Shown here: one piece after another, positions 2,152-62,691 of the stretch
Layout: each line of letters opens with the position of its first letter
Numbering within the stretch: position 1 is the first letter of the stretch
Source of the DNA: a virus
Strand: one strand, 5' to 3'
Length of the DNA: 64,000 nucleotides
IMG/VR virus record: IMGVR_UViG_3300035182_002586
Span: 427,585-491,584 of that record
Position numbers and translations under genes: made by a program
The notes under the pieces: model-generated
Database searches by the model: none
What the model saw: the letters and a program-made list of their open reading frames with translations, nothing else
Told to the model about the DNA's origin: nothing

Positions 2152-2171
2152 GCCCTCGATCTACACCGGGG

Positions 2172-5608: not shown

Positions 5609-5659
5609 CCTCGCCTCCTGATGCTCTCGCGCCGTTCGCGTCGGTGTACTTCCTTGATC

Positions 5660-7743: not shown

Positions 7744-7798
7744 CGTCACTGCCTCCGGTGTACCCATACCACACACCAAGTAGATCCTCGGAGGCCAC

Positions 7799-8599
7799 GT
7801 GATCACGTCGTGTCTCGCTACTGCCGGGTATGCCGCCAAGTTGCCCGCGCTCAAGGACCGCACGTTCACGTTCGGTCCCGGCCTCATCATTCTCTTCGGG
7901 CAGAACGGCTCGGGGAAGTCGACGTTACTGTCCATTCTCGCGAGCTACTCGGGGTGCTGGGAAGCTGGATGGACAGCGTTCTCTTCCAACTATGTGGGCT
8001 TCAACGACGCCCCGTTCCCGCACAGGCTCGCTACCCGTGGGAACCAAGCAGAGGTCGCGTGGGACGGCACCCCGAGCTTCTACAGCACGGGGCCCGAGTC
8101 CGGGCAGTCGGGGTTCAACAACGCCCTCGAAGACGGTGGTGAGGACGCGGACAACTACCTCCGGAGCCTCCTGGCTCCTGGTTCGGCAGGCCAAGGCCAG
8201 ATCCAGTGGCTCAATCAGATGGAGAAGAAGCTCTCCGCGCCTCCGGATCTTCTCCGGGAAGACGGGACTCTACGCATACGTGGTCACGGTGAGGTCGAGA
8301 GGTCGAGCGTCAATAGCCTGTGGGGGGAGGCCATCGACGGCTTCCAGTCACACATCCGGTCGCTGCCCCACACGGGACCCGTGACGGTCCTTCTCGACGA
8401 ACCCGACGCACACATGTCGCTGCCGAACCAGCACACCCTCTGGACGAAGGCCATCCCGCGCCTCTCCGTTGGGCGACAGGTCATCGTCGCCACGCACAGC
8501 GCATTCGCCCTATGCGCCCCGGACGCGACCATCATCGACCTCCAGCCGGGGTACGAGGATCGGTGCCGGAAGGTTCTTCGGGCTCTTCGCGAAGTCTGA
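7799..8599 (+). CDS. SMC/ABC-type (AAA_21-like) ATPase 266 aa
   Basis: Walker A GQNGSGKST, signature-like SAGQGQ, Walker B VLLDEPDAHM, H-loop ATHS; GGAGG-5nt-GTG. Confidence 0.75.
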   Translation: MITSCLATAGYAAKLPALKDRTFTFGPGLIILFGQNGSGKSTLLSILASYSGCWEAGWTAFSSNYVGFNDAPFPHRLATRGNQAEVAWDGTPSFYSTGPESGQSGFNNALEDGGEDADNYLRSLLAPGSAGQGQIQWLNQMEKKLSAPPDLLREDGTLRIRGHGEVERSSVNSLWGEAIDGFQSHIRSLPHTGPVTVLLDEPDAHMSLPNQHTLWTKAIPRLSVGRQVIVATHSAFALCAPDATIIDLQPGYEDRCRKVLRALREV

Positions 8600-8633
8600 T
8601 GGATCGCTCCCCGCCTCGCATTGTAGGAGGGAC
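8597..8633 (+). promoter_or_regulatory. composite start motif; its TGA is the stop codon of the ATPase gene
   Basis: TGATGGATCG-N15-TTGTAGGAGGGAC-ATG. Confidence 0.7.
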
Positions 8634-10421: not shown

Positions 10422-10456
10422 CGCGAGGAGATCTACACCACGGTGTAGGATGGAAC

Positions 10457-17822: not shown

Positions 17823-17843
17823 GGGGGGCGAGCGTACACCTGA

Positions 17844-18113: not shown

Positions 18114-18191
18114 GACGTAGCTCTTACACCGGGAGGACCCCCAGGCGCGAATAGCTCCACAACACGGATCCCCTTGTCATGTCGCGCAGTT

Positions 18192-19339: not shown

Positions 19340-19367
19340 CCCTCTCGGTGTAGAGGCGGTCGTGAAC

Positions 19368-19790: not shown

Positions 19791-19874
19791 GTCTTCACTA
19801 CACCGCGATGAGAATTCGATCCATTCGCACCTCGGTCGGATGGATCGATCCGGGGGTCGCGCGGTAGTAGGGAC
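19791..19874. promoter_or_regulatory. 84-bp divergent intergenic region carrying two complete start-associated motifs back to back, one per strand
   Basis: seen directly. Confidence 0.7.
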
Positions 19875-20312: not shown

Positions 20313-20329
20313 CCGGTGTAGTAGAGGGC

Positions 20330-21195: not shown

Positions 21196-21211
21196 CGGTG
21201 TACATGAGGAC

Positions 21212-23675: not shown

Positions 23676-23717
23676 CTCAGCGCTGCCGGTACACCGCGTC
23701 TGGTGTACCCCAGAGGT
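23676..23717. promoter_or_regulatory. palindromic GGTACACC-6-GGTGTACC shared by divergent starts 23675(-) and 23718(+)
   Basis: seen directly. Confidence 0.55.
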
Positions 23718-25258: not shown

Positions 25259-25289
25259 CGCTTCGGGCCCCGGTGTACGCGGACTGCCC

Positions 25290-26399: not shown

Positions 26400-26430
26400 A
26401 ACCACGCTGCATGAGGTGTAGAAGCGGATC

Positions 26431-26715
26431 ATGAGCACCGAACCCGCCCTCATGACCTTCGAGATGCTTCGCGACATCGCCACCCGGAAGGGCACGGTCC
26501 GCTGGACGGCCTCGGGCATCGTCGAGCACCTGCGGCTACACAAGAAGGGCTTCGTGATCGCCCGGAAGGTCAAGGACACCAAGGAGCACCGGATCAAGAC
26601 CCACGACGACGGCTACCGCTGCATCGAGGTCGCCAGGGACTCTCGGTTCCCGTCCGACCATCCGGAGGGCTTCGTCCCCACGATCCCCGCCGAGACACTC
26701 ACGGGCCTGGTGTAG
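26431..26715 (+). CDS. hypothetical protein 94 aa
   Basis: GGTGTAGAAGCGGATC-ATG. Confidence 0.6.
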   Translation: MSTEPALMTFEMLRDIATRKGTVRWTASGIVEHLRLHKKGFVIARKVKDTKEHRIKTHDDGYRCIEVARDSRFPSDHPEGFVPTIPAETLTGLV

Positions 26716-28242: not shown

Positions 28243-28277
28243 AGGGTAAATCGATCGAACCCCGGTCGATTTACCCT
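28243..28277. terminator. bidirectional hairpin AGGGTAAATCGA-loop11-TCGATTTACCCT between convergent genes
   Basis: perfect 12-bp stem, AT-richer than surroundings. Confidence 0.5.
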
Positions 28278-28489: not shown

Positions 28490-28528
28490 GTTGACCCTCT
28501 ACACCGCGCTGTGGTGTAGGGTAGAAGC

Positions 28529-29436: not shown

Positions 29437-29493
29437 CGCGGTTCCCCCGGTACACCGATGGATCGATCCCGGTCACGTGCGGTAGTAGAGACA

Positions 29494-32899: not shown

Positions 32900-32937
32900 G
32901 GGCGCGGTGGTACACCGAGTCCACCCCGAACGAGGCC

Positions 32938-34047
32938 CTACTTTCCCTTGCCGAGGAACTCCTTGATCGAGGGGAGGATCGCATCGCGGTCTGCGATCTG
33001 GCTCAGGGTCACCCGATCGTCGTCGGGGAATGCCGTTCGGAGGTCCTTGTAGAACTGCCCCGACCCGTACGGAGAATCGACCTGTCCGTACGAGAACACG
33101 TTCACGACGGGCAGGAGGCGATCGCGCAGGACCTTGATGCAATCCTCCGTGTCCTCAGTCGACCAGTTGTCCCCGTCGGAGAAGTGGAAAGGGTAGATGT
33201 TCCACGAAGATGAGGGGTAGTCCTTGTCGATGATCTTCATGCACAGGTCCAGAGCCGACGAGATCCTCGTCCCTCCAGACTCGCGCGTGTGGAAGAACGT
33301 GTGCCGGTCGACCTCGCGCGCCTCTGCGTCGTGGGTGATGAACCGGGTCTCGATGCCCTTGTACTGACGTCGGAGCCAGAGGTCGATCCAGAAGGACTCC
33401 AGGCGGACGATCTCTTTCTGGTCGTCGCCCATCGAGCCCGACACGTCCATCATGTAGATGACGACGGCCTGCGCCTGCGGCTTGAGGGTGATGTCCGGCG
33501 CGCGGTAGCGCCAGTCGTCTCGCACGGGCATGAGCACGGGCTGGTCGGGGTTGTAGTCCCCCGACGAGATGGCGCGCTTGAGCGTCTCCTTGTAGCTGCG
33601 CTTCATGTGGCGCAGCGACCCGGGCCCCACTCTGGAGATCCCCGTGTACTTGTTCGAGTCCTGGATGATGTTCTCTTTGCCCTTGTTCTCGATCTTCGGG
33701 AGTTGGAGTTCGTCTCCGAGCATGTCGGCGAGTTCATCCATGGAGATGTCCGCCTCGATCCCGTGCTTGTCCGTGTCCTTGCCGGCCTTCTTGCCCTTGC
33801 CCTTCTGGTCCGGGTCGCCGCCCACGGGATCGCCTACGTCCCCATCCCCCTGTCCTGCGCCCCCCGCCTGCTTGTCACCGTAGACGAAGCGCGGCATGTC
33901 GATCTGAGGGATCGGCACGGACACGACATCCTTGCCGACGCGGCCGAGAAGCTCCCCCGAAGAGATGTACTTCGAGAGGTTCCCGCGCACCTTCTTGCGG
34001 ATGATGTCCTTGAACCTCGAATGGTCTGCGCCGATGCGATTCGACAT
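32938..34047 (-). CDS. DUF444 / YeaH-YhbH family protein with VWA domain 369 aa
   Basis: VVIYMMDVSGSMGDDQK..GGTRISSALDL..IYPFHFSDGDNWS; GGTGTACCGGGAGGCTCC-ATG. Confidence 0.8.
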   Translation of the reverse strand: MSNRIGADHSRFKDIIRKKVRGNLSKYISSGELLGRVGKDVVSVPIPQIDMPRFVYGDKQAGGAGQGDGDVGDPVGGDPDQKGKGKKAGKDTDKHGIEADISMDELADMLGDELQLPKIENKGKENIIQDSNKYTGISRVGPGSLRHMKRSYKETLKRAISSGDYNPDQPVLMPVRDDWRYRAPDITLKPQAQAVVIYMMDVSGSMGDDQKEIVRLESFWIDLWLRRQYKGIETRFITHDAEAREVDRHTFFHTRESGGTRISSALDLCMKIIDKDYPSSSWNIYPFHFSDGDNWSTEDTEDCIKVLRDRLLPVVNVFSYGQVDSPYGSGQFYKDLRTAFPDDDRVTLSQIADRDAILPSIKEFLGKGK

Positions 34048-34085
34048 GGAGCCTCCCGGTACACCGGACGGTGTAGCTTAGCGCA

Positions 34086-34502
34086 ATGGCCGACGAAGAA
34101 GCCAAGGTCGACGTCGTGATCGCCACGCGCCTGTGGAAGCTCTATAACCTCGTGTGGACGGGCAATCTCTACGAGAAGGCCCGAGCGAACACGCTCCAGA
34201 AGTACCCCGCAGTCCACGAGTTCGTCCCCGAAGACAAGCGCACGAACCTCCCGGACGCCTGGGACCTCGGACGGGTCCGGCACTTCTACGAGCTGCTGCG
34301 CGCGGGCAAGTCCATCGACCCCATCGACGTGGACAACGAGTGCCACAACGGGTTCATCTACCCCGTCCCCATCGTCCTCGATGGCCACCACCGGCTCGTT
34401 GCGGCCGCCCTCGCAAGGGCCCGCATCCCCGTGCACTACGGTGGCCGGATTGACCTTCTCGACTACCTCACGGGCAAGCGACGGACGGCCCCGACGGCCT
34501 AG
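34086..34502 (+). CDS. ParB/Srx-like nuclease domain protein
   Basis: IDPIDVDNE..PIVLDGHHRLVAAALA. Confidence 0.55.
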   Translation: MADEEAKVDVVIATRLWKLYNLVWTGNLYEKARANTLQKYPAVHEFVPEDKRTNLPDAWDLGRVRHFYELLRAGKSIDPIDVDNECHNGFIYPVPIVLDGHHRLVAAALARARIPVHYGGRIDLLDYLTGKRRTAPTA

Positions 34503-34505
34503 CCG

Positions 34506-34838
34506 TCAGCTCGCTCCGCGCTGCTGCATGTACCCAAGCCCGTAGCTTGGGGTGGAGAGCGCAGCCTCGCCACGCTCCTCGAAGGGTCGGGGGTCGATCG
34601 CCAGACCCTTCGAGGTCAGAAGCTCGCAGTACGTCCGGATCTGCTCCCACGAGACGTGGATCCCCATCTCCCTGAAGTCCCTCGACCGAGCCACAATCAG
34701 GCCGTGGTTCCAGTCCGTGGTGACGAAGAAGACCTCGCCTGGTCGGAGCCACGTACGTCCCGTGTCGAAGGACCGGAGCACGCGCAGGGTGTCGATGGGT
34801 TGGAGGCGCTCGATCCCGTGGCCACGTCGTTTGGACAT
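34506..34838 (-). CDS. hypothetical protein 110 aa
   Basis: GGTGTACATGTGGAC-ATG. Confidence 0.55.
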   Translation of the reverse strand: MSKRRGHGIERLQPIDTLRVLRSFDTGRTWLRPGEVFFVTTDWNHGLIVARSRDFREMGIHVSWEQIRTYCELLTSKGLAIDPRPFEERGEAALSTPSYGLGYMQQRGAS

Positions 34839-34855
34839 GTCCACATGTACACCGG

Positions 34856-35515
34856 TCAACGCTTGGAGCGGTCGTACTCCCCGGCCAGGTGCTTCTTGAG
34901 GGTCTCCCCCAGAGCGCGCTCCAAGAGCCCTACGAGGTCCAGCTCCCGTTCGTAGGTGACCTCCCATGCGTAGGTCGCGCCCCCACCGAAACCCTCCACG
35001 ATCCGAGACTTGTGGGCTCGACACCCCGTACCAAGACCTTTCGCCAACAGCTCGTTGGCGTCCGGAGCCTCGTGCCACTCCGACTCGGCCTCCTCGTGGG
35101 ACTGCGCCCATCCGTAGCAGAGGCGAAAGCGCATCTCCAGCTTGTTCCCCTTCGCCGAAGCCTGCACGTACTCGACCGAGGGGCTCGTGGACTCGTGGTT
35201 CACAGCCGTCAGAGCGGCCTCGATGGCCTCGTCCAGCTTCGGAGAGTACAGCACCGGGTGCAGAGCCTCCCCCGTTGCCTCGTGCATGGTCTTGACGATC
35301 TCGTGGTACGCATGCGCCACGTAGGCTTCACGCGTCATCGCCTCCGGGGCGTCGGTGGCGTCGAGGTAGGTGGTACACCGGAGTACCTCCGTGACCATCC
35401 GGGTCGTCTCGTGCGGCTGGATCGCCTTGAAGGCGTTCAGGAAGAACTTGGGGTAGGTGGCCGCCACGATTGCCCGTTGGTTGTACTGGTAGGACATCTC
35501 ACACCAGGGTTTCAT
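34856..35515 (-). CDS. hypothetical protein 219 aa
   Basis: GGTGTACTTCTTCT-ATG. Confidence 0.6.
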   Translation of the reverse strand: MKPWCEMSYQYNQRAIVAATYPKFFLNAFKAIQPHETTRMVTEVLRCTTYLDATDAPEAMTREAYVAHAYHEIVKTMHEATGEALHPVLYSPKLDEAIEAALTAVNHESTSPSVEYVQASAKGNKLEMRFRLCYGWAQSHEEAESEWHEAPDANELLAKGLGTGCRAHKSRIVEGFGGGATYAWEVTYERELDLVGLLERALGETLKKHLAGEYDRSKR

Positions 35516-35561
35516 AGAAGAAGTACACCAGCGCGCTTTTTCCTTCTAGGCTTCCAAGGGT

Positions 35562-36570: not shown

Positions 36571-37443
36571 TCAACTCCGGGGCTTCCGTAGTCGGACCCA
36601 CTCCTCCGTCGTTCCCTCGAACCCCGACGGCTTCGGCCCGCACCCTACCGGCACGTCCTCGAACTCCCCAGGCCCCGTCTGAACCAGATACGTCTCAGGT
36701 TCGGGCACAGGCTCGAAGGCCGCAGCGGGGGGCAGGCAAAGACAGTCTCGCGAACGTCCACAGGTGTCGCAGTAGTACCCGCCGTCCGTGATGACACAGA
36801 GAGGGGCGGGGGGCGGGTTCTTCCGGCGCATCTTCGGGACGGGCTTGCCACAGAACGGGCAGAACCGACCCTCAGGATCCGTGTCGTAGTGACCATCCGG
36901 CGCGAGGTCCGTGTGGTAGCTCGTGCGCCACCACGCCTTACCTGTGATGGAGTCTGGGTCGACCCTGACCGTAAAGACGATCGCCGGGTGCACCCGCGCC
37001 TCTTCGCAGCATTCGAGACGCGGAATCGCGTTCTTCTGGAATCGCTGGTACTCGTCGAAGAGGTCGCTAAGCTCCCACCGCTCCTGTTCGGACAGTGCCT
37101 CCCCGTCCTCGTGACGCGCCGCGCCTTCCTTTGCACTGAGAACGCGGAACCGTTCGATACGGGTCAAGTCCATGCGAAGGGAGGTACACCATCGGAGTGC
37201 GTCGCGAAGCTCCCCCGTCGGAGCCAGCTCCCGGTTCCCATCCTCGGGGGTAATGAGCACCAGCGCGGACCCGACGACGTTCGTGTTCGCCGTGTTGCAC
37301 ACGTGGAACCGGCGCTCTGCCCGATCGACCACGGTGGTGCCCGCATTCGGCCGCGCGAAGAGCTTCGTCTCTGCCGACCGGAGCATCACTGCCCATGCGT
37401 CCATCGAGGGCGAGAAGCGGCTGTCGAGGATCTCGTAGACCAT
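36571..37443 (-). CDS. hypothetical zinc-ribbon protein 290 aa
   Basis: internal ATG (TGATG overlap with upstream stop); CPFCGKP..CDTCG. Confidence 0.6.
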   Translation of the reverse strand: MVYEILDSRFSPSMDAWAVMLRSAETKLFARPNAGTTVVDRAERRFHVCNTANTNVVGSALVLITPEDGNRELAPTGELRDALRWCTSLRMDLTRIERFRVLSAKEGAARHEDGEALSEQERWELSDLFDEYQRFQKNAIPRLECCEEARVHPAIVFTVRVDPDSITGKAWWRTSYHTDLAPDGHYDTDPEGRFCPFCGKPVPKMRRKNPPPAPLCVITDGGYYCDTCGRSRDCLCLPPAAAFEPVPEPETYLVQTGPGEFEDVPVGCGPKPSGFEGTTEEWVRLRKPRS

Positions 37444-37919
37444 CAGAACACCGCCAGTGCCCCAGCCACGAAGCCCTCGGAGTAGACGACGAGGGCTTCG
37501 CGCTTCTTTTTGGTGAACGAGTCCCACTCGTTCACGGCGATCCCGAGCTTCCCGGTGGGGCCACCGTGGACCTTGATGTCCCAGATGTGATCGTCCCGGT
37601 CCAGAGACCAGAGGACTTCCTTGAGGTTCGCGGCCAGAGCTTCGAGAACCTTGACCTCGCTGCACGTCACCAGGCGAACGTAGCGGCCGCTGTACTCCTC
37701 CTGCCAGACGGGGCACTCGGGCCGCCCGTCGATGCCGCCCCAGCAGTAGTCGCTGAACGGGTCTCCGAGTCCCTTCCGAGAGCAGTCGATGTCCTCTGCG
37801 CTCGGCTTGTAGTCCCCACAGCCGGGGCAGACCTCGCCGCTCCCGACCCTAGGGGCACTCTCGCCTTCGCCTTCCGCCTTGGTGGCGTCCTCCCCGGGGA
37901 GCACTTCGTCGTCTTCCAT
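37443..37919 (-). CDS. hypothetical Cys-rich protein 158 aa
   Basis: GGTGTACTTTGGGGGC-ATG. Confidence 0.55.
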   Translation of the reverse strand: MEDDEVLPGEDATKAEGEGESAPRVGSGEVCPGCGDYKPSAEDIDCSRKGLGDPFSDYCWGGIDGRPECPVWQEEYSGRYVRLVTCSEVKVLEALAANLKEVLWSLDRDDHIWDIKVHGGPTGKLGIAVNEWDSFTKKKREALVVYSEGFVAGALAVF

Positions 37920-38004
37920 GCCCCCAAAGTACACCGGGAACCGGCACCCGAAAGAAAGTTGAGGGAGCCGATGGATCAGCACCCCCTCGCACGGTAGTAG
38001 GAGC

Positions 38005-39121: not shown

Positions 39122-39331
39122 CTCATGGCTCGTTTCGACCTCAAAGAGATCCTGGACATCTGCGTCACCAAGCACGGCTGCCGTATCGAGTACTATGGAT
39201 CACACGTCCGCGTGCTGCCGCCCGACCCGAAGATGGGCATGGTCGGGATCTCGCAGCACCCGAGCGATCACCGGGCGATCCGGAACTTCATCGCGCAGCT
39301 CCGGCGCGCGGGCATCGACGTGAAGGTGTAA
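39122..39331 (+). CDS. HicA/YcfA-like small protein 69 aa
   Basis: AGGAG SD; KEILDICVTKHGCRIEYYGSHVRVLPPD..HRAIRNFIAQLRRAGI. Confidence 0.45.
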   Translation, partial: LMARFDLKEILDICVTKHGCRIEYYGSHVRVLPPDPKMGMVGISQHPSDHRAIRNFIAQLRRAGIDVKV

Positions 39332-39340
39332 GAGGATCCC

Positions 39341-39751
39341 ATGACCTGCGAGCACCTGACCGGCTGCCACAAGAACTCGAAGGGCGATCGCGTCTGCAAC
39401 GGCTGTGGTCTTGTGAATCCCCGCCGGCACTCGTGGCGGGGCCGCAAGCACGACGTGAAGTGCCGCCACTGCGGGATGGTCCGCAAGCACCTCGGGGGCG
39501 GCGTGTGGGCCTGCCAGACCAAGGACGGCAAAGCCCTCGTCGGAAGCGTGCACGAGTGCCCGCCAGAGCCCGAGGTGTGCGGGGACAAGGTGATCGTCGC
39601 CGACGGTGAGCAGGTCACGTGCTCCCTGGAGAAGGATCACCCGGTCGTGGGCATCGACAACGGCAAGACCCGCAAGTACCAGTTCCACCAAGGTGGCGAG
39701 TGGGTGTGGGACGAGAAGTGCGCCTGGAAGAAAGGCGAGGAACCACGATGA
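39341..39751 (+). CDS. Cys-rich protein 136 aa
   Basis: ORF track. Confidence 0.6.
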   Translation: MTCEHLTGCHKNSKGDRVCNGCGLVNPRRHSWRGRKHDVKCRHCGMVRKHLGGGVWACQTKDGKALVGSVHECPPEPEVCGDKVIVADGEQVTCSLEKDHPVVGIDNGKTRKYQFHQGGEWVWDEKCAWKKGEEPR

Positions 39752-40965: not shown

Positions 40966-41517
40966 TCACTTCCTGGAGTCGTGTGCGGCCACAACTTTGC
41001 GGCATAGAGCCACGAACTCCTCGTCAGACATGTCGTGCTTCGCAGTGTTGACCTCCAACAGAACCCATCGGAGGTTACCCCTTACGGAAAGGCCGCCTTT
41101 AGACCGCGGTACTATGTGATCCAGGCTAGCGTTGACCCCTGGAATAAGCGGCTCACCTGTCACCGCACACAGCCCACACTGTTCATCCCAGATAGACTGT
41201 AGAAGGGCCGTACCACCGTTCTTAGTTTGGAGCCCATATGGATTCCCGATGCCCTGGAACCAGTGGTACAGACAGAGAATGTTCGTCACCGCCTTCTGCT
41301 TACAGCGAATGCACCACCCGTTCGCCAGTCGCGCCCCTTTCCAAGACTTGATGTACGTCCTGTACTGTTCTCGTTGTTCACTGGTCAGAGGTTTTCGAGT
41401 GGTGCGGCGGCACTCCTTACAGGGCATTCTCGGCCGCCCACTCGTCATCGAGTAGAAGTCTTTTCGAGGTTTGGGGAGCGAGCAGTCCCGGCACCGGATC
41501 AGTTCTACGTCTGACAT
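40966..41517 (-). CDS. HNH endonuclease
   Basis: CGLCAVTG..ASLDHIVPRSKGG..NLRWVLLEVNTAKHD; markedly lower GC. Confidence 0.8.
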   Translation of the reverse strand: MSDVELIRCRDCSLPKPRKDFYSMTSGRPRMPCKECRRTTRKPLTSEQREQYRTYIKSWKGARLANGWCIRCKQKAVTNILCLYHWFQGIGNPYGLQTKNGGTALLQSIWDEQCGLCAVTGEPLIPGVNASLDHIVPRSKGGLSVRGNLRWVLLEVNTAKHDMSDEEFVALCRKVVAAHDSRK

Positions 41518-41533
41518 TTGCTACCTAAGAGCT

Positions 41534-42544
41534 ATGACACACCTCGACAAGATCGGCTTCTACACCCTGCAAGACGAACGCGCCCGCACGTGTAGCACCA
41601 CGTCCCCCATGACACGGGCGTGCTTCATGATCACCGGGCGTTGTAACTTCCGTTGCGTTTATTGCAACGGCTCGGTGTGCGACCGGGACTTCACCGTCGA
41701 GCAGGTTGGCGCGCTGCTCACGGACCTAGCCAACCACCAGATCCAGGCGGTCCGCTTCACGGGCGGGGAGCCGACCTTGCACCGTGACCTGCTCACGATG
41801 GTTCGGACCGCGCGCGACCTCGGGATCCCGAAGATCGCCGTCTCGACGAACGGGGCCGCACGCCCCGAGCTGTACCGCGAGCTGGTCGAGGCCGGGGTCA
41901 ACGACTTCTCGATCTCGGCCGACTGCCAAGACCTGGAGCTGGCCGCGAAGCTCTCGGGCCGCCCGGGGACGTGGGACCGGGTGAAAGAGAACATCCGGAT
42001 GCTCTCGAAGCTCACCTACGTGATCATCGGGACCACCATCACGGAAGAGAACCTCGCGCAGATCCCGGAGACACTGGCGTTTCTCGGAGCCCTTGGGGTG
42101 GCCGACATCAAGCTGGCGACGGCGACACAGCTCAGGAGGGATATCCCCCTCGACATTCTCGACAAGATCTCGCCCGAGCTGCTCGAACGGATGCCCGTCC
42201 TACGCTACCGGATCGAGCACTACAAGGCCGGGAGACCGGTTCGGGGGCTCGTCGAGGGTCGGGACAGCCACCACTGCTGGTGGGTCCAGGACGACATCGT
42301 GCTGACCCCCGATGGCCACTACCCGTGCATCGTGTACCCCCGGGAGAAGGGGACGCCGATCGGACCCCTCGCGTCCGTGGCGGAGATGCGGGAAGCCCGC
42401 CTCGCGTGGGCGCGCAGCCGGGACACCCACGAGGATCCCATCTGCGTGCCCTACTGCATGGACATCTTCGCCGACTGCAACAAGCGGATCGAGGACCTCC
42501 AGGGGCTCGTCCCGGCTTCCAGGCTGAGGCGAACCACGGCCTGA
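41534..42544 (+). CDS. radical SAM protein, MoaA-like with C-terminal twitch-like Cys region
   Basis: CNFRCVYC, GGEPTL, VSTNGA; C-term HHCWW..DGHYPCIV..ICVPYC..DC; start 17 nt from divergent HNH start. Confidence 0.8.
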   Translation: MTHLDKIGFYTLQDERARTCSTTSPMTRACFMITGRCNFRCVYCNGSVCDRDFTVEQVGALLTDLANHQIQAVRFTGGEPTLHRDLLTMVRTARDLGIPKIAVSTNGAARPELYRELVEAGVNDFSISADCQDLELAAKLSGRPGTWDRVKENIRMLSKLTYVIIGTTITEENLAQIPETLAFLGALGVADIKLATATQLRRDIPLDILDKISPELLERMPVLRYRIEHYKAGRPVRGLVEGRDSHHCWWVQDDIVLTPDGHYPCIVYPREKGTPIGPLASVAEMREARLAWARSRDTHEDPICVPYCMDIFADCNKRIEDLQGLVPASRLRRTTA

Positions 42545-43322: not shown

Positions 43323-43353
43323 TCCACGGGGTGTATGGACGGAGGACTGAACC

Positions 43354-43632
43354 ATGAGCTACGACCCCGACGAGGACTACGACGACGAGGACTACGACGA
43401 CGAGGACTACGACGACGAGGATGCGGGCGACTTCGACCTCGACGACGAGGACGACCGCTCGATGTTCGCCGACCCCGGTGGCAAGAGCGCCCTGCGCGCG
43501 GCGACCCCGGACAACCCCCGGGACCTCCCGTGCCCGACCTGCCACCAGCCGGACAAGCTCACGCCCGCCGACAAGGCGCTCGGCTACCAGTGCGACGACT
43601 GCGCCGACCGGGCCGAGGGCGGGGGCTATTGA
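43354..43632 (+). CDS. highly acidic DEDYD-repeat protein with C-terminal zinc finger
   Basis: GGAGGA SD; three 15-nt coding repeats; CPTC..CDDC. Confidence 0.65.
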   Translation: MSYDPDEDYDDEDYDDEDYDDEDAGDFDLDDEDDRSMFADPGGKSALRAATPDNPRDLPCPTCHQPDKLTPADKALGYQCDDCADRAEGGGY

Positions 43633-44568: not shown

Positions 44569-45204
44569 TCACCTCAGAGAGGCCAGCTCTTCGAGCGTCG
44601 TGATCGGCCGCGCACTCAGGACGACCGCTCGACTCCAGCCCATGGAACGAAACTCGCTCTGCCCCGGCGTTCCCGCCACGGGGATCTCGAACATCCCCCA
44701 CGAGGGGTCCCCGCCGTCCGCGTGCGCTACGAACGAGAGGTCCGCCGTCACCACGAAGTGCGTCGGCTGCCGGATCCAAGGGCGGTCCGAGTCCACGTAG
44801 CGGCCGGCAGCGTACGCCGCAGCGTAGGCACCCGTCAGATGTGGGACGAGCAGCGCCGCCGACTGCGGCGTGTGCGTCACCAGGAAGACCTTTGCCTGCT
44901 TCCCCTTCGGCCAGCCGATGGGCACGTACGTGTACCCCGTGACTGCCGGAAACCCCGCCCACTCACCCTTGATCAGCATCTTGGCCATACTGCCCGACTG
45001 TAACACAGGATCATCGGGGGTTGTCGAGGGTAGGACACGATGGGCTGCCCTGCGAACCGCCTCCTCCGACACCTCGTGCCCCTCGACCTGGAGCGACTGT
45101 CGAACGCTCCGTATCAGGGCGTCGCTGACCAGAACACCAGGCGGGGCCCGGCGCCGGGGACGCGCCAGAAGCTCGCTCAGCTTCGTGTCCGGGGTGACCT
45201 TCAC
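44569..45204 (-). CDS. hypothetical protein 211 aa
   Basis: GTGA overlap with upstream stop. Confidence 0.5.
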   Translation of the reverse strand: MKVTPDTKLSELLARPRRRAPPGVLVSDALIRSVRQSLQVEGHEVSEEAVRRAAHRVLPSTTPDDPVLQSGSMAKMLIKGEWAGFPAVTGYTYVPIGWPKGKQAKVFLVTHTPQSAALLVPHLTGAYAAAYAAGRYVDSDRPWIRQPTHFVVTADLSFVAHADGGDPSWGMFEIPVAGTPGQSEFRSMGWSRAVVLSARPITTLEELASLR

Positions 45205-45509
45205 AACGAGGTTGTGCCCGTCCACCCACAGCCGGGACACCCGATCCGCCGCTGCGGTGGGTAGGACGTGAGCACGACGCCCCCGCTGATGTCGTACAAC
45301 TCCGTCTTGCAGTGGTCGCAAGCGAAGCCACAGGGGCTTGCACCCCCTCCAACGATCACCGCATGGATCCGGTCCCGCATCTGCTCCGTAACCCCCTCGC
45401 GGAGCGGGATCTGCTGGCTCTGGATCGCGAGGACCCTATCTGCACGCTCCTGCGCCTTCCGGGCACGCGACTCTTCTCGCCACGCCTTCTCTTCGTTGAG
45501 CGTCCTCAT
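45201..45509 (-). CDS. zinc-finger/coiled-coil protein 102 aa
   Basis: GGTGTACTAGGAGCGC-ATG. Confidence 0.55.
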   Translation of the reverse strand: MRTLNEEKAWREESRARKAQERADRVLAIQSQQIPLREGVTEQMRDRIHAVIVGGGASPCGFACDHCKTELYDISGGVVLTSYPPQRRIGCPGCGWTGTTSL

Positions 45510-45548
45510 GCGCTCCTAGTACACCACGGTCCGGTGTAAGCCCCTCAC
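45510..45548. promoter_or_regulatory. palindromic TACACC-7-GGTGTA element serving both divergent starts
   Basis: seen directly; same arrangement at 10422-10456, 23676-23717, 28490-28528, 34048-34085. Confidence 0.55.
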
Positions 45549-45917
45549 ATGGGTGCGACCCGGACCGTTCGCGTTGACGCGCTTCTCGTCGAGTACATGC
45601 AGGCCACCGCCTCGGTCAGAAAACTCCGAGATCGCACGAAGGTTCTGCAACGCCAGATCCTCTTGAAGGCGGGCTGGAAGGTCCACGCTCCGGGTTCCAC
45701 GGGATGGCTGAAAGGGATCGAGCGGCACGTCGCCTCGAACCCCAAGTCCAAGGTGACCGCCGGGTTCTACCAACGCTACTACGCGAACAAGGAGGTCTGG
45801 GTCGATCCCGTCATGAAGGATCTCCTCTTCATGGTGTCCTACGCCTGGACCCGGCATTTCGGGCGAATCAGCCGCTCCTGCGATCTCATCGCCAACGGTG
45901 TAGAGGCACGAGCATGA
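45549..45917 (+). CDS. hypothetical protein 122 aa
   Basis: GGTGTAAGCCCCTCAC-ATG. Confidence 0.6.
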   Translation: MGATRTVRVDALLVEYMQATASVRKLRDRTKVLQRQILLKAGWKVHAPGSTGWLKGIERHVASNPKSKVTAGFYQRYYANKEVWVDPVMKDLLFMVSYAWTRHFGRISRSCDLIANGVEARA

Positions 45918-46258
45918 AGAAGTGGACACCGTGGACGCGTGACCTCGCGTTCGACTTCATCGCGAGAGCCATCCCCGTGATGAAAGACGCCGGGTACGCG
46001 TGCGCCCTCGCGGGAAGTCTCCTGATCAAGAACGAGAGTCAGAAGGATCTGGATCTGGATCTCGTTCTCTTCCCCTACGACAACACCAAGTCACGCGTGG
46101 ACGATGCTCTCGAAGCCCTCCGGTCCCTCGGGATGGCCTGCGTGTTCGACGTGGCGTTCGTACACGAGAAGTGGGCGAACCAGGGGAGCACGGATCGAAA
46201 GCACGTCGAGGTGTGGGAGTACGACGGCCACCGCATCGATGTCTTCTGGCTGGAGTGA
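45914..46258 (+). CDS. minimal nucleotidyltransferase (Pol-beta superfamily)
   Basis: GSLLIKNESQKDLDLDLVLFP = hG[GS]x9-13DxD. Confidence 0.6.
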   Translation: MKKWTPWTRDLAFDFIARAIPVMKDAGYACALAGSLLIKNESQKDLDLDLVLFPYDNTKSRVDDALEALRSLGMACVFDVAFVHEKWANQGSTDRKHVEVWEYDGHRIDVFWLE

Positions 46259-47753: not shown

Positions 47754-48274
47754 CGACTCAGAGCTACAAGCGATGCGGCAAATGTGGGGCTCAGTACATC
47801 TACACGGGGAGCGGACACGGCTGTCTGAAGCCCCTGAACAACTCGACCTGGTGCCCCGACTGCACGAGAGTCGTCAACGCGGCCCTCGCGAACATCCCGA
47901 GGAAGTTCGAGGGGCGTTGGACCCCCATCGCCGAAGTGCCACACCTCGCGGGCGTCACCCCGGAGCACATTCGGGCCTGGGAGGAAGCGGCGCACCGTGA
48001 AGCTGAAGAGAGGCAGGCCGCAGGGCAGATCGTGGCCCGTCGCGTCTTCTCGCCCCTCTTCAACCTCCAGACCGGCGACTCTCAGAACGTGCGAGAGGTC
48101 CGTGGCCGCGACGAGTTCCAAGGGCACACGTTCAAGGTCGCCTCTTGGCGTCAAGCGGGAGGAATCGAGATCGAGGTCAACATGGAGTACGACCTCCAGA
48201 ACAACCGCTACACCGGACACGAATGGCCCCGCGCGGTCCCAAAGCGCGGATCGGTGTACCCCCGAGAGAGCTGA
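47750..48274 (+). CDS. zinc-ribbon protein 174 aa
   Basis: CGKCG..CPDC. Confidence 0.65.
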   Translation: MTTQSYKRCGKCGAQYIYTGSGHGCLKPLNNSTWCPDCTRVVNAALANIPRKFEGRWTPIAEVPHLAGVTPEHIRAWEEAAHREAEERQAAGQIVARRVFSPLFNLQTGDSQNVREVRGRDEFQGHTFKVASWRQAGGIEIEVNMEYDLQNNRYTGHEWPRAVPKRGSVYPRES

Positions 48275-48275
48275 C

Positions 48276-48527
48276 ATGAAACTCGACATCCCGATCGTCG
48301 TCATCCACCGACCGACCCCGGAGTATTCCAACATCCCGGGCCCCCGTCTCGACTGGACTGCTCGAAGCCTACTGCCCCTTCCGAGCTTCATGATGGGCGA
48401 CCCCTTCTGGCAACCGGCAGCCGCAGGGGAGACTCGCGAAGAAGCCGTCAAGCACCTCAGGACCACGATCGAACGATGGTCCAAGGAACACCGGGCCGAG
48501 CTGGCAACCTTCACGGTGGAGACATGA
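48276..48527 (+). CDS. hypothetical protein 83 aa
   Basis: ORF-track frame. Confidence 0.5.
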   Translation: MKLDIPIVVIHRPTPEYSNIPGPRLDWTARSLLPLPSFMMGDPFWQPAAAGETREEAVKHLRTTIERWSKEHRAELATFTVET

Positions 48528-49529: not shown

Positions 49530-49546
49530 CGGTGTAGATCGTGGGC

Positions 49547-50233
49547 ATGGACCCGCGAGACATCCGAGCCTGGCTCCGAGACCCCGAGACCAACGGGGGC
49601 GACCTCTGGCTCAAAGCCAACGGAGAGGAAGCGATCCGTCTCCTGCTTGGGCGTCTCGACGCCTTCGAGGATCGAGACGAGACGATCGCGCGCGACTCGG
49701 CGGAGCGGAGGGCACGCATGGACGCCTTCATCGCGAAGCTCGAAGAGAACGCGCCGCCCCCTCCGACCCCGGAGGAGATGGAGAAGACTGCGGAGAGCTT
49801 CGCCGAAATGTTCAAGCCGTGCGAGCACTGCGGCAAGTCCGGCATGTCCTGCATCGAGGACGAAAGCTGCCACTGCTGCTACGGCTGCATCCGCCTGCGG
49901 GACATCCTGCACGCCGTCCTGACCAACCCGAAGAGCGAGACCCTCGCGGCTGCGCGGGCAGCCTACGAGGAGAGTGACCCCCGCCAGTGGATCGGGTCCG
50001 AGATCGCCTACCGGCTCAAGGACCTTGGCGTGGAGGTGGTCCGGAGCCCGTTCCCCGACTTCATCCAGGGCAGCAAGGGGGACAAGACCTTCGCGGCGCG
50101 AGCGGACGGGATCAAGGTCTTCTACTGGATCAACCACGGGGAGGAGAAGCAGGCGGAGTACCTGGTCGACCTGATCGACACTCTCGTGGCCGAATTCCAA
50201 ACCCCTCTGGATGGATCGGCCCCGCCCCCCTGA
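49547..50233 (+). CDS. hypothetical Cys-containing protein 228 aa
   Basis: GGTGTAGATCGTGGGC-ATG. Confidence 0.65.
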   Translation: MDPRDIRAWLRDPETNGGDLWLKANGEEAIRLLLGRLDAFEDRDETIARDSAERRARMDAFIAKLEENAPPPPTPEEMEKTAESFAEMFKPCEHCGKSGMSCIEDESCHCCYGCIRLRDILHAVLTNPKSETLAAARAAYEESDPRQWIGSEIAYRLKDLGVEVVRSPFPDFIQGSKGDKTFAARADGIKVFYWINHGEEKQAEYLVDLIDTLVAEFQTPLDGSAPPP

Positions 50234-53360: not shown

Positions 53361-53567
53361 ATGACCCTCCTCGAAGAACTTGAAGAGATCCGCAAGAGGC
53401 TCCGCGCCATCGAGCCCAAGGACTGCTGCAAGAAGCAGCCGATGGTGGCGGCGGGCAAGACCGAGATGCTCTGTGGGCCCGACTGCTCCTGGATGCAGCT
53501 CGAAACCGCGCTGATGTACGTCATCCTCGACGCTGAGCAGAGAGAGAAGCAGTCGCGCGGTGTATGA
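53361..53567 (+). CDS. hypothetical protein 68 aa
   Basis: ORF-track frame. Confidence 0.5.
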   Translation: MTLLEELEEIRKRLRAIEPKDCCKKQPMVAAGKTEMLCGPDCSWMQLETALMYVILDAEQREKQSRGV

Positions 53568-56314: not shown

Positions 56315-56514
56315 GCAAGCACTTCGACCACTGCAACGCCAACGGCCTGGTGGACGGGAGGATCCCGGTGGGCAAGCCCTGCCCCTTCCTCGCCAAGTGC
56401 CCGATGGCAAGCGAACGTTGCCCCGGCTTCGAGGGGCAGCTCAAGCCCGTCGCCTACTCGTGCGCCGCCGCGCGAGGCTTCTCCATCTGCATGGAACCCA
56501 AGGATCCGGTGTAA
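56311..56514 (+). CDS. Cys-rich small protein 67 aa
   Basis: ATGA overlap. Confidence 0.5.
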   Translation: MSKHFDHCNANGLVDGRIPVGKPCPFLAKCPMASERCPGFEGQLKPVAYSCAAARGFSICMEPKDPV

Positions 56515-56522
56515 AAAGAACC

Positions 56523-56960
56523 ATGACCCTCCAGACCAGCATCGACCGCCTCACGGCGATGTTCACGGCCGCCCTCCTGAACGCCATCCGAGAGACCGTC
56601 TCCAACACCTCCCTCATCGGCCTCGCGGCCATGACCGAGCCGCGACGACCCGGCCGCCCGCCCCGGTGGAAGACTGAGGCCCTGCGCACCTTCGAGAAGA
56701 CCACGGCGGTCGCCGCCGCCCCCAAGATCAAGAGGGCTCCCAAGGCCAAGCCCGTGAAGACGGAGACGGTCGAGGCGTTCACCCCGCCACCGGCTCCCAA
56801 GGCCAAGCCCGTGCCCATCGTCGGGATCGTCAAGGGCAGCCTTGTCATCACCGAGAAGGACGGCCGATTCTCCATGAAGCTGAACGGCAAGCAGTACGGC
56901 GCGTCCCGCCGTCGCGACCTCGTGCGCCAGGCGCGCCGGATCGGCGTCGCCCTGGTGTAG
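56523..56960 (+). CDS. hypothetical protein with KAKP repeats 145 aa
   Basis: ORF-track frame. Confidence 0.55.
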   Translation: MTLQTSIDRLTAMFTAALLNAIRETVSNTSLIGLAAMTEPRRPGRPPRWKTEALRTFEKTTAVAAAPKIKRAPKAKPVKTETVEAFTPPPAPKAKPVPIVGIVKGSLVITEKDGRFSMKLNGKQYGASRRRDLVRQARRIGVALV

Positions 56961-56970
56961 AAGACGGGGC

Positions 56971-57192
56971 ATGAACCACTCGAAGTTCTCCCTCGCCCTG
57001 GAAGCATTCGCCATTCGGGGCGACAGGAAGCCCGTGCTCTCCCTCACCCCGAGCGAGATCCCCCCGAAGTTCTACCCGACCGTCATCAGACTGCGCGCGT
57101 GGCCTCTCATCGAACCGAGTGTCCGGTTCACCGAGACCCGGCGCATCATGGAGCACCTCGCAACCGTAGGCGCGTGCCGCCAGGCCGCCTGA
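56971..57192 (+). CDS. hypothetical protein 73 aa
   Basis: GTAGAAGACGGGGC-ATG. Confidence 0.55.
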   Translation: MNHSKFSLALEAFAIRGDRKPVLSLTPSEIPPKFYPTVIRLRAWPLIEPSVRFTETRRIMEHLATVGACRQAA

Positions 57193-59843: not shown

Positions 59844-59864
59844 CGCGTAGAGGGCTACACCGGA

Positions 59865-60116
59865 TCAGCAGTGGAGCATTGAGGAAAGGAACACCCCGAG
59901 GACGATCCCCCACGAGAAGATGAGCAACGCCTGCTTCGTCGTGTACCCGGGAGGCTTCGGGGGGTCCGGCCACTTCAAATCGTCGGGCGTCGGCGCGGGC
60001 GGCGGAAGCGTGTACATCGGCTTCCGTGAGGTCGGTCGAGGGTCGTATCGATCCTGGCAACGCGGACACGGGATCACTCTCCCGCACGTGTTGCAACGGC
60101 CCTCGTCCCAGGCCAT
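59865..60116 (-). CDS. small zinc-finger protein with C-terminal membrane anchor
   Basis: CNTCG..CPRC; hydrophobic C-terminus. Confidence 0.45.
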   Translation of the reverse strand: MAWDEGRCNTCGRVIPCPRCQDRYDPRPTSRKPMYTLPPPAPTPDDLKWPDPPKPPGYTTKQALLIFSWGIVLGVFLSSMLHC

Positions 60117-60382
60117 CAGCCGGGCCCACACGACTGGATGTACACGCTCACCGGGATCGCGCGACTCACCACCCACGAAGGCTCGAAGAAAAGGCTCCCC
60201 TTGGGGTCGAAGGTGTTAGGGTTCGGCCACCCCCACACGCGCGCAAGTCGTGTCGCCGCCTTCCCCATGAGCGTCCGCTCGATGTACTCGGCCAGGGTCT
60301 CCCCCGGCTGATAGCACCCGTAGAAGTCCAAGTGGCTCTCCACCACAGGCTTCAGATCGAGAGAGCGGGAAGCGTTTGACAT
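60116..60382 (-). CDS. hypothetical protein 88 aa
   Basis: GGTGTAGGATCCTCTGTG-ATG. Confidence 0.5.
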   Translation of the reverse strand: MSNASRSLDLKPVVESHLDFYGCYQPGETLAEYIERTLMGKAATRLARVWGWPNPNTFDPKGSLFFEPSWVVSRAIPVSVYIQSCGPG

Positions 60383-60393
60383 CACAGAGGATC

Positions 60394-61341
60394 CTACACC
60401 GCAGGAGCCGGGAATGATGCGATCAGAGCACGCATAGCATCTTCCGCGACCTTGATCCCGTCCGCGTATACCCCACCCATGACGCGTCCGCGCACGGATT
60501 GTGTGTCGTACTTGCTGCTCCCGATGTTCCGGGTCACGTCCCAATAGGCCCACCGAACCCCGGAACCGTCGTTCAACCCCTCGCAGTTCTCGGACACCCC
60601 GATCGCCGTGAGGCTCCAACCCTGGAGGACAGTCCAGCACCCACAGAGGAACCGGCTCTCGTCCGCCATGGGGATCCCGTAGCCTGCGGCCGCAGCACGT
60701 GCCTGTGTCTCCGCCTCTTCCCACGTCCCCGCGCTGCCTGTCAGACGGTCCCGGGGCGGGCCGTCAGGTGGGTTCACGACGTGCGGCTTCACGCTCCACT
60801 CGAAGGTCTGCCGGACGGGCACACGGCAAAGAAGCTCCTCCCACCCTCCAACCGGGAACTCCCCCATCTGCACCCTATCGTCGTAGAGCTTCCGGAGCCA
60901 GGCGGTGTCCCGCATCGTGTGCTTGACCTCCACCTTCCCCGCCTCGTTGCGCCACGTCGTGGAGGCGTGCGTCTGCACACCCCCGGCGAGGAACGACCAA
61001 GGCTTGTCCCGACGAAGTTCCTCGGAGAGCCCGTGGATCAGCAGGCCGGCACGCGCGATGGGATGCGCGCCCCGCTCGATCCTGTCGAGATCCTGCGTCA
61101 GCTCAGTTCTATCGTGGAGACGCCAGTAGCTCACGATCCACTGGAGGAAGGATTCCCCCACCAGCATGGCCCCGTCCCGCACCGAGGTCCCACGGTAGAT
61201 CGCATCTCGCACCTCGGGCGGAGCCCGGCGACGCAGCTCCAAGACCGCATCACGGTACGTCGCCGGGATGTTCTCCGTCCCGTCCGCTGTCCGGTCCATC
61301 AGCGGAGCGAGAGAGTCCTCTAGCAGCAAACGCTCGTACAT
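60394..61341 (-). CDS. hypothetical protein 315 aa
   Basis: internal ATG with GGTACACCCGGAGAAGCG-ATG. Confidence 0.6.
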   Translation of the reverse strand: MYERLLLEDSLAPLMDRTADGTENIPATYRDAVLELRRRAPPEVRDAIYRGTSVRDGAMLVGESFLQWIVSYWRLHDRTELTQDLDRIERGAHPIARAGLLIHGLSEELRRDKPWSFLAGGVQTHASTTWRNEAGKVEVKHTMRDTAWLRKLYDDRVQMGEFPVGGWEELLCRVPVRQTFEWSVKPHVVNPPDGPPRDRLTGSAGTWEEAETQARAAAAGYGIPMADESRFLCGCWTVLQGWSLTAIGVSENCEGLNDGSGVRWAYWDVTRNIGSSKYDTQSVRGRVMGGVYADGIKVAEDAMRALIASFPAPAV

Positions 61342-61359
61342 CGCTTCTCCGGGTGTACC

Positions 61360-62634: not shown

Positions 62635-62691
62635 GGGGGTCCTTGTACACCGCTGGATGGATCACCCCACCCCCCGCGCTGTAGAGAGGAC

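Follow-up and report, generated by a model that had tools for sequence, protein, structure and literature searches.

We describe here a short sequence, GGTGTA, that recurs at a near-constant distance upstream of start codons in a 64,000-nucleotide stretch of virus DNA (the window; positions 427,585 to 491,584 of IMG/VR virus record IMGVR_UViG_3300035182_002586), with emphasis on the two oppositely oriented copies at 45510-45548. The window is, we infer, very probably part of an uncultivated huge phage, and makes up about one tenth of a presumed 620-kb genome. Almost nothing is known about the transcription organisation of uncultivated huge phages (>200 kb), and the systems to which GGTGTA can be compared are single-box phage promoters, -10-only promoters of leaderless genes, and the start-associated sequences of Cluster K mycobacteriophages. 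A literature search with the motif string itself returned primer sequences only.

Among phage promoters, the T4 late promoter TATAAATA is read by gp55. The Thermus phage phiYS40 (152 kb), studied by Sevostyanova et al. in 2007, reportedly has -35-less middle and late promoters with mostly leaderless transcripts, and these are said to be read by the host sigma-A holoenzyme and to keep a normal -10 hexamer; phages of the phiYS40 group have a DUF444/vWA-like gene in common with the window. Giant phage AR9 has short single-box promoters and 159 transcription starts for 293 genes, and both its late promoter (AACA-N6-TA/G) and that of phiKZ (TATG) are read by a non-virion RNA polymerase (PMC5312081). 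GGTGTA is likewise a short, near-invariant box that serves many genes (about 60 boxes for 145 genes) and likewise has internal and antisense copies, but it conforms to neither consensus, and it is locked 9-12 nt from the ATG whereas AR9 leaders are 26-491 nt long (PMC5312081). No split beta/beta' RNA polymerase genes of the phiKZ/AR9 type were found among the 59 window proteins scanned with Pfam, which include every called gene of at least 125 aa and come from about one tenth of the presumed genome.

In Deinococcus, leaderless promoters that have been validated experimentally consist of TANNNT 6-7 bp upstream of the open reading frame (ORF), with the TA 10-11 nt from the ATG (PMC12340547). In bacteria with such promoters the genes with a box lack a Shine-Dalgarno (SD) sequence, and a second gene class has GGAG-type SDs (PMC12340547, PMC4007540). 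These -10-only promoters of Deinococcus-Thermus and Actinobacteria share with GGTGTA a single short start-proximal box and a -35 that is not obligatory. They differ in that GGTGTA is conserved 5' of and including the TA, has no T at the last hexamer position, and is nearly invariant where theirs is degenerate. Extended -10 promoters (TGn-TATAAT) are similar in that extra bases upstream of the TA appear to replace the -35, but in every copy of GGTGTA the TG adjoins the TA, a register that differs by one base from TGnTA, and the rest of the hexamer is unconserved; the comparison with the extended -10 TGn motif made in the initial annotation of this DNA is thus apt as to function (no -35, extra bases 5' of the TA) and not as to register.

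The start-associated sequences (SAS) of Cluster K mycobacteriophages are 13-bp asymmetric sequences (GGGATAGGAGCCC) with an SD core, located 3-7 bp from the start in one orientation, upstream of many non-structural-gene starts, with upstream stop codons embedded and with an extended subset (ESAS) (PMC3203893); their function is still unresolved (PMC12699233). GGTGTA shares their orientation, their tie to start codons and their preference for ATG, but it is 6-7 bp long, lacks an SD core and is found 9-12 nt before the start; a 37-nt companion element in the window (the long element, described below) is the closer analogue of SAS plus ESAS. A scan of the window for the SAS consensus with up to two mismatches gave a single match, with two mismatches and not at a start, where 2.15 are expected. 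Stoperators, the 13-bp asymmetric repressor sites of mycobacteriophage L5 and Cluster A (PMC3203893), resemble GGTGTA in being asymmetric, oriented with transcription and placed in short intergenic spaces, but they block elongation and are not start-locked, whereas GGTGTA is defined by its fixed distance to the ATG. As a genomic phenomenon GGTGTA is closest to the Cluster K sequences, being oriented, start-locked, ATG-preferring and accompanied by an extended form; mechanistically it is closest to -10-only leaderless and single-box phage promoters, and it fails the sequence definition of all of them.

GGTGTA is enriched at a fixed distance from start codons

The window is densely packed, with 65% G+C and a coding share of 88% by our own gene calls, which were made with a codon-score caller written for this window and comprise about 145 mostly small genes. 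GGTGTA is present in 59 copies against 12.4 +/- 3.4 in 100 dinucleotide-preserving shuffles, none of which reaches 59, and the arrangement GGTGTA-N8-12-ATG is present 34 times against 0.70 +/- 0.86 expected. When all hexamers are ranked by the occurrence of an ATG 8-13 nt later, without use of gene calls, GGTGTA comes first (34/59, p=6.7e-25) and the next-ranked words overlap GGTGTA itself; this bears out the enrichment at a fixed start distance proposed in the initial annotation. Of the 59 copies, about 36-39 stand before a credible start, here an ORF whose coding score is positive, so that roughly a quarter of the window genes have the box ahead of them. The remaining copies, about 20, are scattered in genes on either strand, near the chance number (12 in the shuffles). 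The closeness of these non-start copies to the chance number would speak for an artefact of composition, codon usage or gene calling, but there is virtually no chance that the pattern is one: none of the 100 shuffles reaches the observed counts, the hexamer scan is free of gene calls, and 9 of the 11 GGTGTA-associated starts in the region covered by independent public gene calls coincide with them. The observation is real and highly significant.

Each copy is oriented toward the gene on its own strand. The spacer between box and ATG is 8-12 nt (8 copies at 9 nt, 11 at 10, 8 at 11 and 5 at 12; mode 10), with a few outliers at 14-36 nt, rather than the 9-17 nt first proposed. In the alignment of copies, in which invariance of the six box positions is built in, the preceding base is C in 25/37 and the following base is C or G in 32/37, which agrees with the C/G originally noted after the box for all but 5/37 and gives a fuller consensus of (C/T)GGTGTA(G/C). 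Information content is about zero from -50 to -2, and positions beyond the flanking base are uninformative. Of the 18 single-base variants, all tested, GTTGTA alone is associated with starts, and it is the box of the long element; this suggests that recognition of GGTGTA is unusually strict. The same test led us to reject degenerate variants of the box as an explanation for the motif-less genes. Of the 145 genes 84 carry neither element, and GGTGTA precedes about 35-39 of the approximately 122 genes without the long element (about 30%), not most of them as had been stated. The two elements are about equally common on the plus strand (short box 19-22/111, long element 19/111), whereas on the minus strand the short box is found in 17/34 genes and the long element in 3/34 (4 with a hybrid copy); it may be that the short islands of opposing genes constitute an expression class of their own.

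The position of the elements follows gene organisation. Either element is carried by 24/34 genes that are first after a strand switch and by 28/40 same-strand genes with gaps of 7-40 nt, but by only 1/46 translationally coupled genes (start no more than 6 nt from the upstream stop), 57% of which have GGAG/GAGG cores. Such cores are present in 26% of GGTGTA genes versus 49% of motif-less genes (p=0.025). The picture is of a genome divided into units of about 2.4 genes, each with an element at its head and SD-driven overlapping genes behind it. Start-codon context also differs: 49/58 element-bearing genes have C at -1 versus 40/84 others (p=8e-6), giving C(-1)A(+1), and 55/58 start with ATG versus 65/84 others (p=0.0045). 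Bacterial RNA polymerase usually prefers a pyrimidine at -1 and a purine at +1, and leaderless translation depends strongly on AUG.

Paired boxes between diverging genes

At 45510-45548 the layout is CAT-10 nt-TACACC-7 nt-GGTGTA-10 nt-ATG. The left half, read as TACACC on the plus strand (45520..45525, minus), is 10 nt from the ATG of gene 45201-45509(-), and the right half (45533..45538, plus) is 10 nt from the ATG of 45549-45917(+); both starts, 45509(-) and 45549(+), are also those called independently in two public assemblies of this phage. The only homologues found for the gene adjoining this region are from the same phage in two samples (99.96-100% identity), and phylogenetic footprinting is therefore impossible here.

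Four further pairs have the same arrangement. The minus-strand box at 10434..10439 (12 nt to the ATG of 9795-10421(-)) is separated by 2 bp from that at 10442..10447(+), 9 nt from the ATG of the metallophosphoesterase gene 10457-11302(+). GGTGTAC at 23690..23695(-), 14 nt from the ATG of 23460-23675(-), is 6 bp from GGTGTAC at 23702..23707(+), 10 nt from the ATG of 23718-24299(+). GGTGTAG at 28500..28505(-), 10 nt from the GTG of 28271-28489(-), is 7 bp from GGTGTAG at 28513..28518(+), 10 nt from the ATG of 28529-29011(+). GGTGTAC at 34060..34065(-), 12 nt from the ATG of the DUF444/YeaH-like gene 32938-34047(-), is 4 bp from GGTGTAG at 34070..34075(+), 10 nt from the ATG of 34086-34502(+). 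These five TACACC-N0-12-GGTGTA arrangements, with TACACC beginning at 10434, 23690, 28500, 34060 and 45520, compare with 0.00 expected from shuffles and are the palindromic pairs originally listed. All sites quoted in the initial annotation were indeed recovered where it had placed them, except that the spacer at 32899(-) is CCACCGCGCCC, one C more than had been written.

The initial annotation further held that an inverted repeat forms wherever genes diverge within about 40 bp. This is the case in the five pairs above, whereas three tight divergent pairs have one copy (26399/26431, 35515/35562 and 61341/61369) and one (41517/41534) has none. In the first of the three, GGTGTAG at 26415..26420(+) is 10 nt from the ATG of 26431-26715(+) and the divergent gene 25920-26399(-) has no box; in the second, GGTGTAC at 35524..35529(-) is 8 nt from the ATG of 34856-35515(-). 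The single shared box claimed at 61342-61359 exists as one GGTGTACC copy at 61352..61357(+), 11 nt from the ATG of 61369-61596(+), but the diverging gene 60394-61341(-) has only its reverse complement, GGTACACC, 12 nt upstream. Between 41517 and 41534 the diverging starts of 40966-41517(-) and of the radical-SAM gene 41534-42544(+) are 16 nt apart (41518-41533), with neither element and with GGTAG 4 nt before the minus-strand ATG only; the promoters of both genes must then lie in neighbouring coding regions. The radical-SAM label given earlier to this pair was confirmed, and the HNH label for 40966-41517(-) is unsupported by Pfam at E<=0.01.

Two interpretations of the symmetry had been offered, a symmetric protein-binding site and a bidirectional promoter core. 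Under the first, TACACC-Nx-GGTGTA would be one operator for a dimeric phage regulator that co-regulates both diverging genes, and the excess of inverted pairs over shuffles, together with arms that reach 7-8 nt in three pairs, is what such a site would produce. An operator of this kind is nevertheless very improbable: about 29/39 start-associated copies are unpaired, symmetry ends beyond the 6-8 nt box, and, since G or C normally follows the box, arms longer by one base would be expected in half of the cases in any event. Moreover the half-site gaps vary (2, 6, 7, 4 and 7 bp), which is incompatible with a fixed dimer geometry, while the distance to the own ATG is kept, paired copies lying 9-14 nt from their own start. 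The pattern is fully accounted for by two independent elements that are each fixed relative to their own ATG, and the palindrome is probably a by-product of back-to-back boxes rather than a binding unit. The bidirectional core fits insofar as the arrangement is reused across the genome, each core being a pair of independent oriented one-gene elements. The interpretation first offered is thus partly supported. We also considered TACACC as a -10 hexamer for the opposite gene, and rejected this since single copies lack such a partner and the spacing varies.

A proposed leaderless-type promoter and its alternatives

A plausible scenario, and one that we hold to be probable although by no means assured, is that GGTGTA forms the core of a minimal promoter of the -10 type, without a -35, that gives leaderless or near-leaderless mRNAs. 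The TA of GGTGTA lies 10 +/- 1 nt from the ATG, which is the geometry of Deinococcus leaderless promoters (PMC12340547). Divergent intergenic regions of 35-42 bp show no conserved sequence apart from the two boxes, so that the promoters of both units can be nowhere else. A strict box whose variants are not start-associated points to a dedicated and highly specific reader, as with phage-specific promoters. The placement of the elements at the heads of gene units, the start-codon context, the SDs that intervene at displaced copies (below) and the recurrence in related contigs count in favour of this reading as well, and AR9 offers a precedent for so dense a set of promoters. RNA polymerase, steered by a specificity factor that would most likely be sigma-like and either phage-encoded or phage-modified, would recognise GGTGTA and begin transcription about 10 nt past the TA, either on the A of the ATG itself or a few bases from it. 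Messages made in this way would be leaderless or have a leader of no more than 5 nt and would be translated without an SD, with downstream genes of the operon presumably using ordinary GAGG-type SDs and stop/start overlaps. Where units diverge, two oriented boxes would stand back to back, 2-7 bp apart.

Related genomes provide some context for these boxes. The 639-aa protein encoded at 2826-4745 has homologues 43-53% identical in Erythrobacter phage vB_EliS-L02 (150 kb), Mesorhizobium phage Cp1R7A-A1 (131 kb) and IMG/VR contigs of 157-436 kb, and it is all that these related contigs share with the window. In one of them (L005; 208 kb, 60% G+C) the start-associated hexamers CGGTGT and GGTGTA rank first and second, the latter in 5/11 copies (p=1.9e-4). 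GTGTA is the top start-associated pentamer in two others (L004/L009; 173 kb and 416 kb, 55% G+C) and ranks third in L010, and TGTA ranks second in L006 and L016. The boxes in L004 and L005 precede ORFs of 64-377 codons with spacers of 8-10 nt. Recurrence of GGTGTA-N9-10-ATG in distant relatives spanning 55-65% G+C suggests a lineage-level trait and not a quirk of one genome. Box-less relatives have other TA-containing words 8-13 nt before the ATG (TCGCTATA in L002; CGTAG in L013, 16/81; CTATG in L001), as well as GAGCTTG in L015 (11/30); Erythrobacter phage L02 has only SD-like words at its starts. These comparisons suggest that boxes locked to the start are a general feature of this phage group and diverge in sequence, and a TA-containing start-proximal box looks like a lineage trait with a drifting sequence, GGTGTA being common to a subset.

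Several observations weigh against promoter function. The box has no T at -7, and the fourth base after the TA (A5/C10/G15/T7) is not that of a sigma-70 -10 hexamer; canonical TANNNT is not otherwise enriched at the starts of this phage, and the idea that a host-type TANNNT is also enriched at the leaderless position was rejected. No sigma factor or RNA polymerase gene was found with Pfam among the 59 window proteins, about 90% of the presumed genome lying outside the window, nor with PHROGs (10 proteins) or by a PDB sequence search, in which the two largest proteins had no match. A 7-bp box is low in information, and the 20 or so non-start copies are not visibly avoided in genes. One spacer in four for GGTGTA, and one in two for the long element, still contains an SD-like purine run. 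The GTA of the long element is 8 nt from the ATG as against about 10 nt for the short box, so that the two classes cannot share an exact box-to-start distance. Finally, the box is absent from L001, L002, L003, L007, L008, L011, L013, L014 and L015.

The main rival explanation is that GGUGUA acts in RNA, within the 5' leader of longer transcripts, and recruits ribosomes directly or by way of a phage protein or modified ribosome. It would then be a translation initiation element of non-SD type, similar to one role proposed for SAS. The fixed start-codon distance and strong ATG preference speak for such a signal, and both are shared by SAS, 80/93 of which have ATG (PMC3203893). Several boxes overlap upstream stop codons, as ribosome-binding sites do, and the GGTGTAG at 45897..45902(+), 11 nt from the ATG of 45914-46258(+), is embedded in the coding 3' end of 45549-45917 and is the sole copy before an overlapping (ATGA) start. 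We nonetheless regard an RNA-level signal as unlikely. The complementarity to the 16S 3' end, 5-10 nt from the start, that characterises an SD is not a property of GGTGTA: only GGUG could pair with the conserved 16S tail ...UCACCUCC, taken as the universal sequence, which may not be that of the host, and the invariant U5 and A6 cannot. GGTGAT would pair better but does not rank with the top start-associated hexamers, and the box is about 6 nt more distant from the start than an SD would be, with its G-run ending 11-14 nt from the ATG. The element is nearly absent from just those coupled genes in which SDs are common, the divergent regions of 35-42 bp leave neither room nor conserved sequence for separate promoters, and enrichment of C at -1 is a signature of transcription starts and not of ribosome sites. 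A new non-SD translation signal read by phage-modified ribosomes is a further alternative.

Processing of RNA could also yield leaderless messages, if an endoribonuclease recognised GGUGUA in polycistronic RNA and cut about 10 nt downstream to give monocistronic mRNAs. Although this would explain the fixed distance, the ATG preference and the lack of an SD, it supplies no promoters for the divergent units, whose intergenic regions hold nothing else conserved; no ruler-type nuclease was identified by Pfam among the window proteins, and conserved RNA structure was not found (the long element has a mean z of +0.5). We give it only a slight chance.

Should GGTGTA be a promoter core of the kind favoured here, the presence of one of two near-invariant, ATG-locked elements at the head of about 40% of the 145 genes would imply widespread leaderless expression and dense promoters. 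Operons and true start codons would become predictable in ORFan-rich genomes, the full genome could be searched for a sigma-like or polymerase factor that matches the box, and a portable 7-bp promoter and a bidirectional cassette of 35-40 bp would be available. A broader proposal, which we consider doubtful, is that the reader is phage-encoded, either sigma-like or a phage RNA polymerase, and conserved across a deep clade of 170-620 kb phages, and that it forms together with leaderless translation a largely host-independent two-class expression code (the GATGGATC...GTAG element and GGTGTA); the finding of such a conserved reader among huge phages would make the system more interesting.

The long element, individual copies and other features of the window

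The long element is a 37-nt intergenic cassette with 23 copies in the window, built of GATGGATC(G), a C-rich stretch, an invariant C(-17) and (T/G)GTAG(A/T)(A/G)GG(A/G)nC, followed directly by the ATG. A representative copy is TGATGGATCG-N-C(-17)GC-ATTGTAGGAGGGAC-ATG at 8597..8633(+). The ATGs served are at 215(-), 677(-), 1739(-) and 19790(-) on the minus strand, and on the plus strand at 2826, 8634, 11337, 15830, 19875, 21634, 29493, 29989, 38005, 40707, 42589, 50246, 52240, 52584, 54824, 56078, 58423, 62692 and 63173. A strict pattern gives 15 matches against 0 expected; the GTA is exactly 8 nt from the ATG, and C is at -1 in 23/23 genes. The element fills entire intergenic gaps of 33-54 nt, and the TGA with which it begins often serves as stop codon for the gene upstream (TGATGGATC). 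GGATC-N17-GTA-N8-ATG recalls the geometry of ECF-sigma promoters, and the long element (GATGGATC...(T/G)GTAG(A/T)(A/G)GGnnC-ATG) would constitute a second promoter class with a related GTA box and an upstream element. The hybrid copy at 19791-19827(-), ATGGATC-N13-GGTGTAG-N7-ATG, upstream of 19614-19790(-), has its GGTGTAG (19799..19804) in the slot of the (T/G)GTAG box, so that GGTGTAG can fill this slot.

Two other roles for the long element were considered and rejected. An SD-sequestering hairpin formed by its C-rich and G-rich parts is at odds with the mean folding z of +0.5 relative to shuffles, and a mini-ORF starting at GATGGATC and coupled to both neighbouring genes is excluded because its spacing to the ATG downstream differs by 1 nt between copies and the reading frame is not kept.

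Searches for the long-element pattern gave two chance matches in IMG/VR and at least about 116 chance matches in metagenomes; among the matches listed, the element is found beyond this phage only in four contigs of metagenome Ga0070717 (L022, L026, L063 and L137; 1.4-2.6 kb), which have 1-4 copies each (e.g. cGATGGATCgtaccccacccgcgATGTAGAGGGAACATG). No protein or DNA similarity was found between these contigs and the window. Two of the four GGTGTA copies in them precede an ATG at 11-12 nt. From the shared pattern we take it that a related phage in another sample has the long regulatory cassette.

The other single GGTGTA copies on the minus strand begin with GGTGTAG at 2162..2167, 10 nt from the ATG of 1849-2151(-), and GGTGTAC at 17835..17840, 12 nt from the ATG of 17280-17822(-) with no SD in the spacer. 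GGTGTAA at 18125..18130 is 11 nt from the ATG of 17844-18113(-), a first gene after a strand switch, and GGTGTAC at 34848..34853 is 9 nt from that of 34506-34838(-). GGTGTAG copies at 59856..59861 and 60395..60400 are both 12 nt from their ATGs (58890-59843(-) and 60116-60382(-)). Two GGTGTAC boxes serve genes that diverge from long-element genes, at 37930..37935 (10 nt to the ATG of 37443-37919(-); long-element gene at 38005+) and 62646..62651 (11 nt to the ATG of 62125-62634(-); long-element gene at 62692+). The GGTGTAC at 29451..29456(-), 14 nt from the ATG of 29014-29436(-), abuts the GATGGATC of the long element serving 29493(+).

Plus-strand single copies are GGTGTAC at 5643..5648, 11 nt from the ATG of 5660-6262(+), another strand-switch first gene; GGTGTAG at 19347..19352, which is 9 nt from a GTG or 15 nt from an ATG of 19362-19610(+); GGTGTAG at 20315..20320, which fills a 17-nt intergenic gap 9 nt from the ATG of 20330-20695(+); GGTGTAC at 21197..21202, in a gap of 16 nt and 9 nt from the ATG of 21212-21595(+); and GGTGTAC at 25272..25277, 12 nt from the ATG of 25290-25919(+). 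GGTGTAG at 26709..26714 overlaps the 3' end of the upstream gene 9 nt from the ATG of 26724-27473(+), and GGTGTAA at 39325..39330 overlaps the upstream stop codon 10 nt from the ATG of 39341-39751(+). GGTGTAG at 49531..49536 is 10 nt from the ATG of 49547-50233(+), a start that matches an independent gene call, whereas GGTGTAT at 53559..53564, 10 nt from a GTG (53575), is doubtful, the independent call starting at 53560 inside the box. GGTGTAA at 56508..56513 is 9 nt from the ATG of 56523-56960(+), and GGTGTAG at 56954..56959 is 11 nt from that of 56971-57192(+).

Three plus-strand boxes are displaced 17-36 nt from the start, with a GGAGG/GAGAG site intervening and one gene using GTG. These are GGTGTAC at 7757..7762, 36 nt before the GTG of 7799-8599(+) with a GGAGG SD between; GGTGTAT at 43330..43335, 18 nt before the ATG of 43354-43632(+), also with GGAGG between; and GGTGTAC at 48253..48258, 17 nt before the ATG of 48276-48527(+). 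We also note a GGTGTAC at 37185-37190(-) within gene 36571-37443(-), followed after 11 nt by an ATG in frame (37173); an internal start there could give a shortened protein of 200 aa rather than 290 aa.

Nearly all window genes are ORFans, and Pfam recognises few. The families found are DUF444/YeaH-like, SPFH-domain, radical-SAM enzyme and RNA ligase, with further matches to a NADAR domain, metallophosphoesterase, DUF1003, DUF6011 and DUF1653. No tRNA genes or Rfam families were found in the window, and megablast of 12 kb of it against 50,697 phage records gave no close relative, nor was an exact 40-mer from its end present in IMG/VR. Between 40 and 60 kb of the window (20 kb), neither canonical sigma-70 promoters, in a simple consensus scan, nor intrinsic terminators exceeded shuffles; the identical sequence is present in two public samples (Logan SRR11727985 and JGI 3300037010). 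At 30845-34047(-) the DUF444/YeaH-like gene (369 aa) is followed by an SPFH-domain gene (684 aa), and each has a separate GGTGTAC box, that of the latter (30845-32899(-)) being a single copy at 32911..32916(-), 11 nt from the ATG and without an SD. DUF444 homologues are present in Thermus phages of the phiYS40 group and in metagenomic phages of 595-642 kb.

Among the various other features, ORF 16610-17335 (GTG start, 241 aa) within 16588-17335(+) has lower G+C and atypical codon usage and may be a recently acquired or mobile gene. It is preceded by TTGCCA-N15-TATGCT-N6-GTG, a canonical-looking, host-type -10 at the leaderless position, and a Pfam search with the ORF found nothing. A cysteine-rich ORF of 192 aa at 22892-23486(-), with a poor codon score and GGTGTAC-N10-GTG in front, sits in a stretch of about 560 nt (22896-23459) left empty by the gene caller. 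The heptamer TCTCGGA/TCCGAGA is present in 34 copies in the window against about 16 expected from a Markov model, and a short tandem repeat, GGATCT x3 (ggatctggatctggatct), is found at 46045-46062 within gene 45914-46258.

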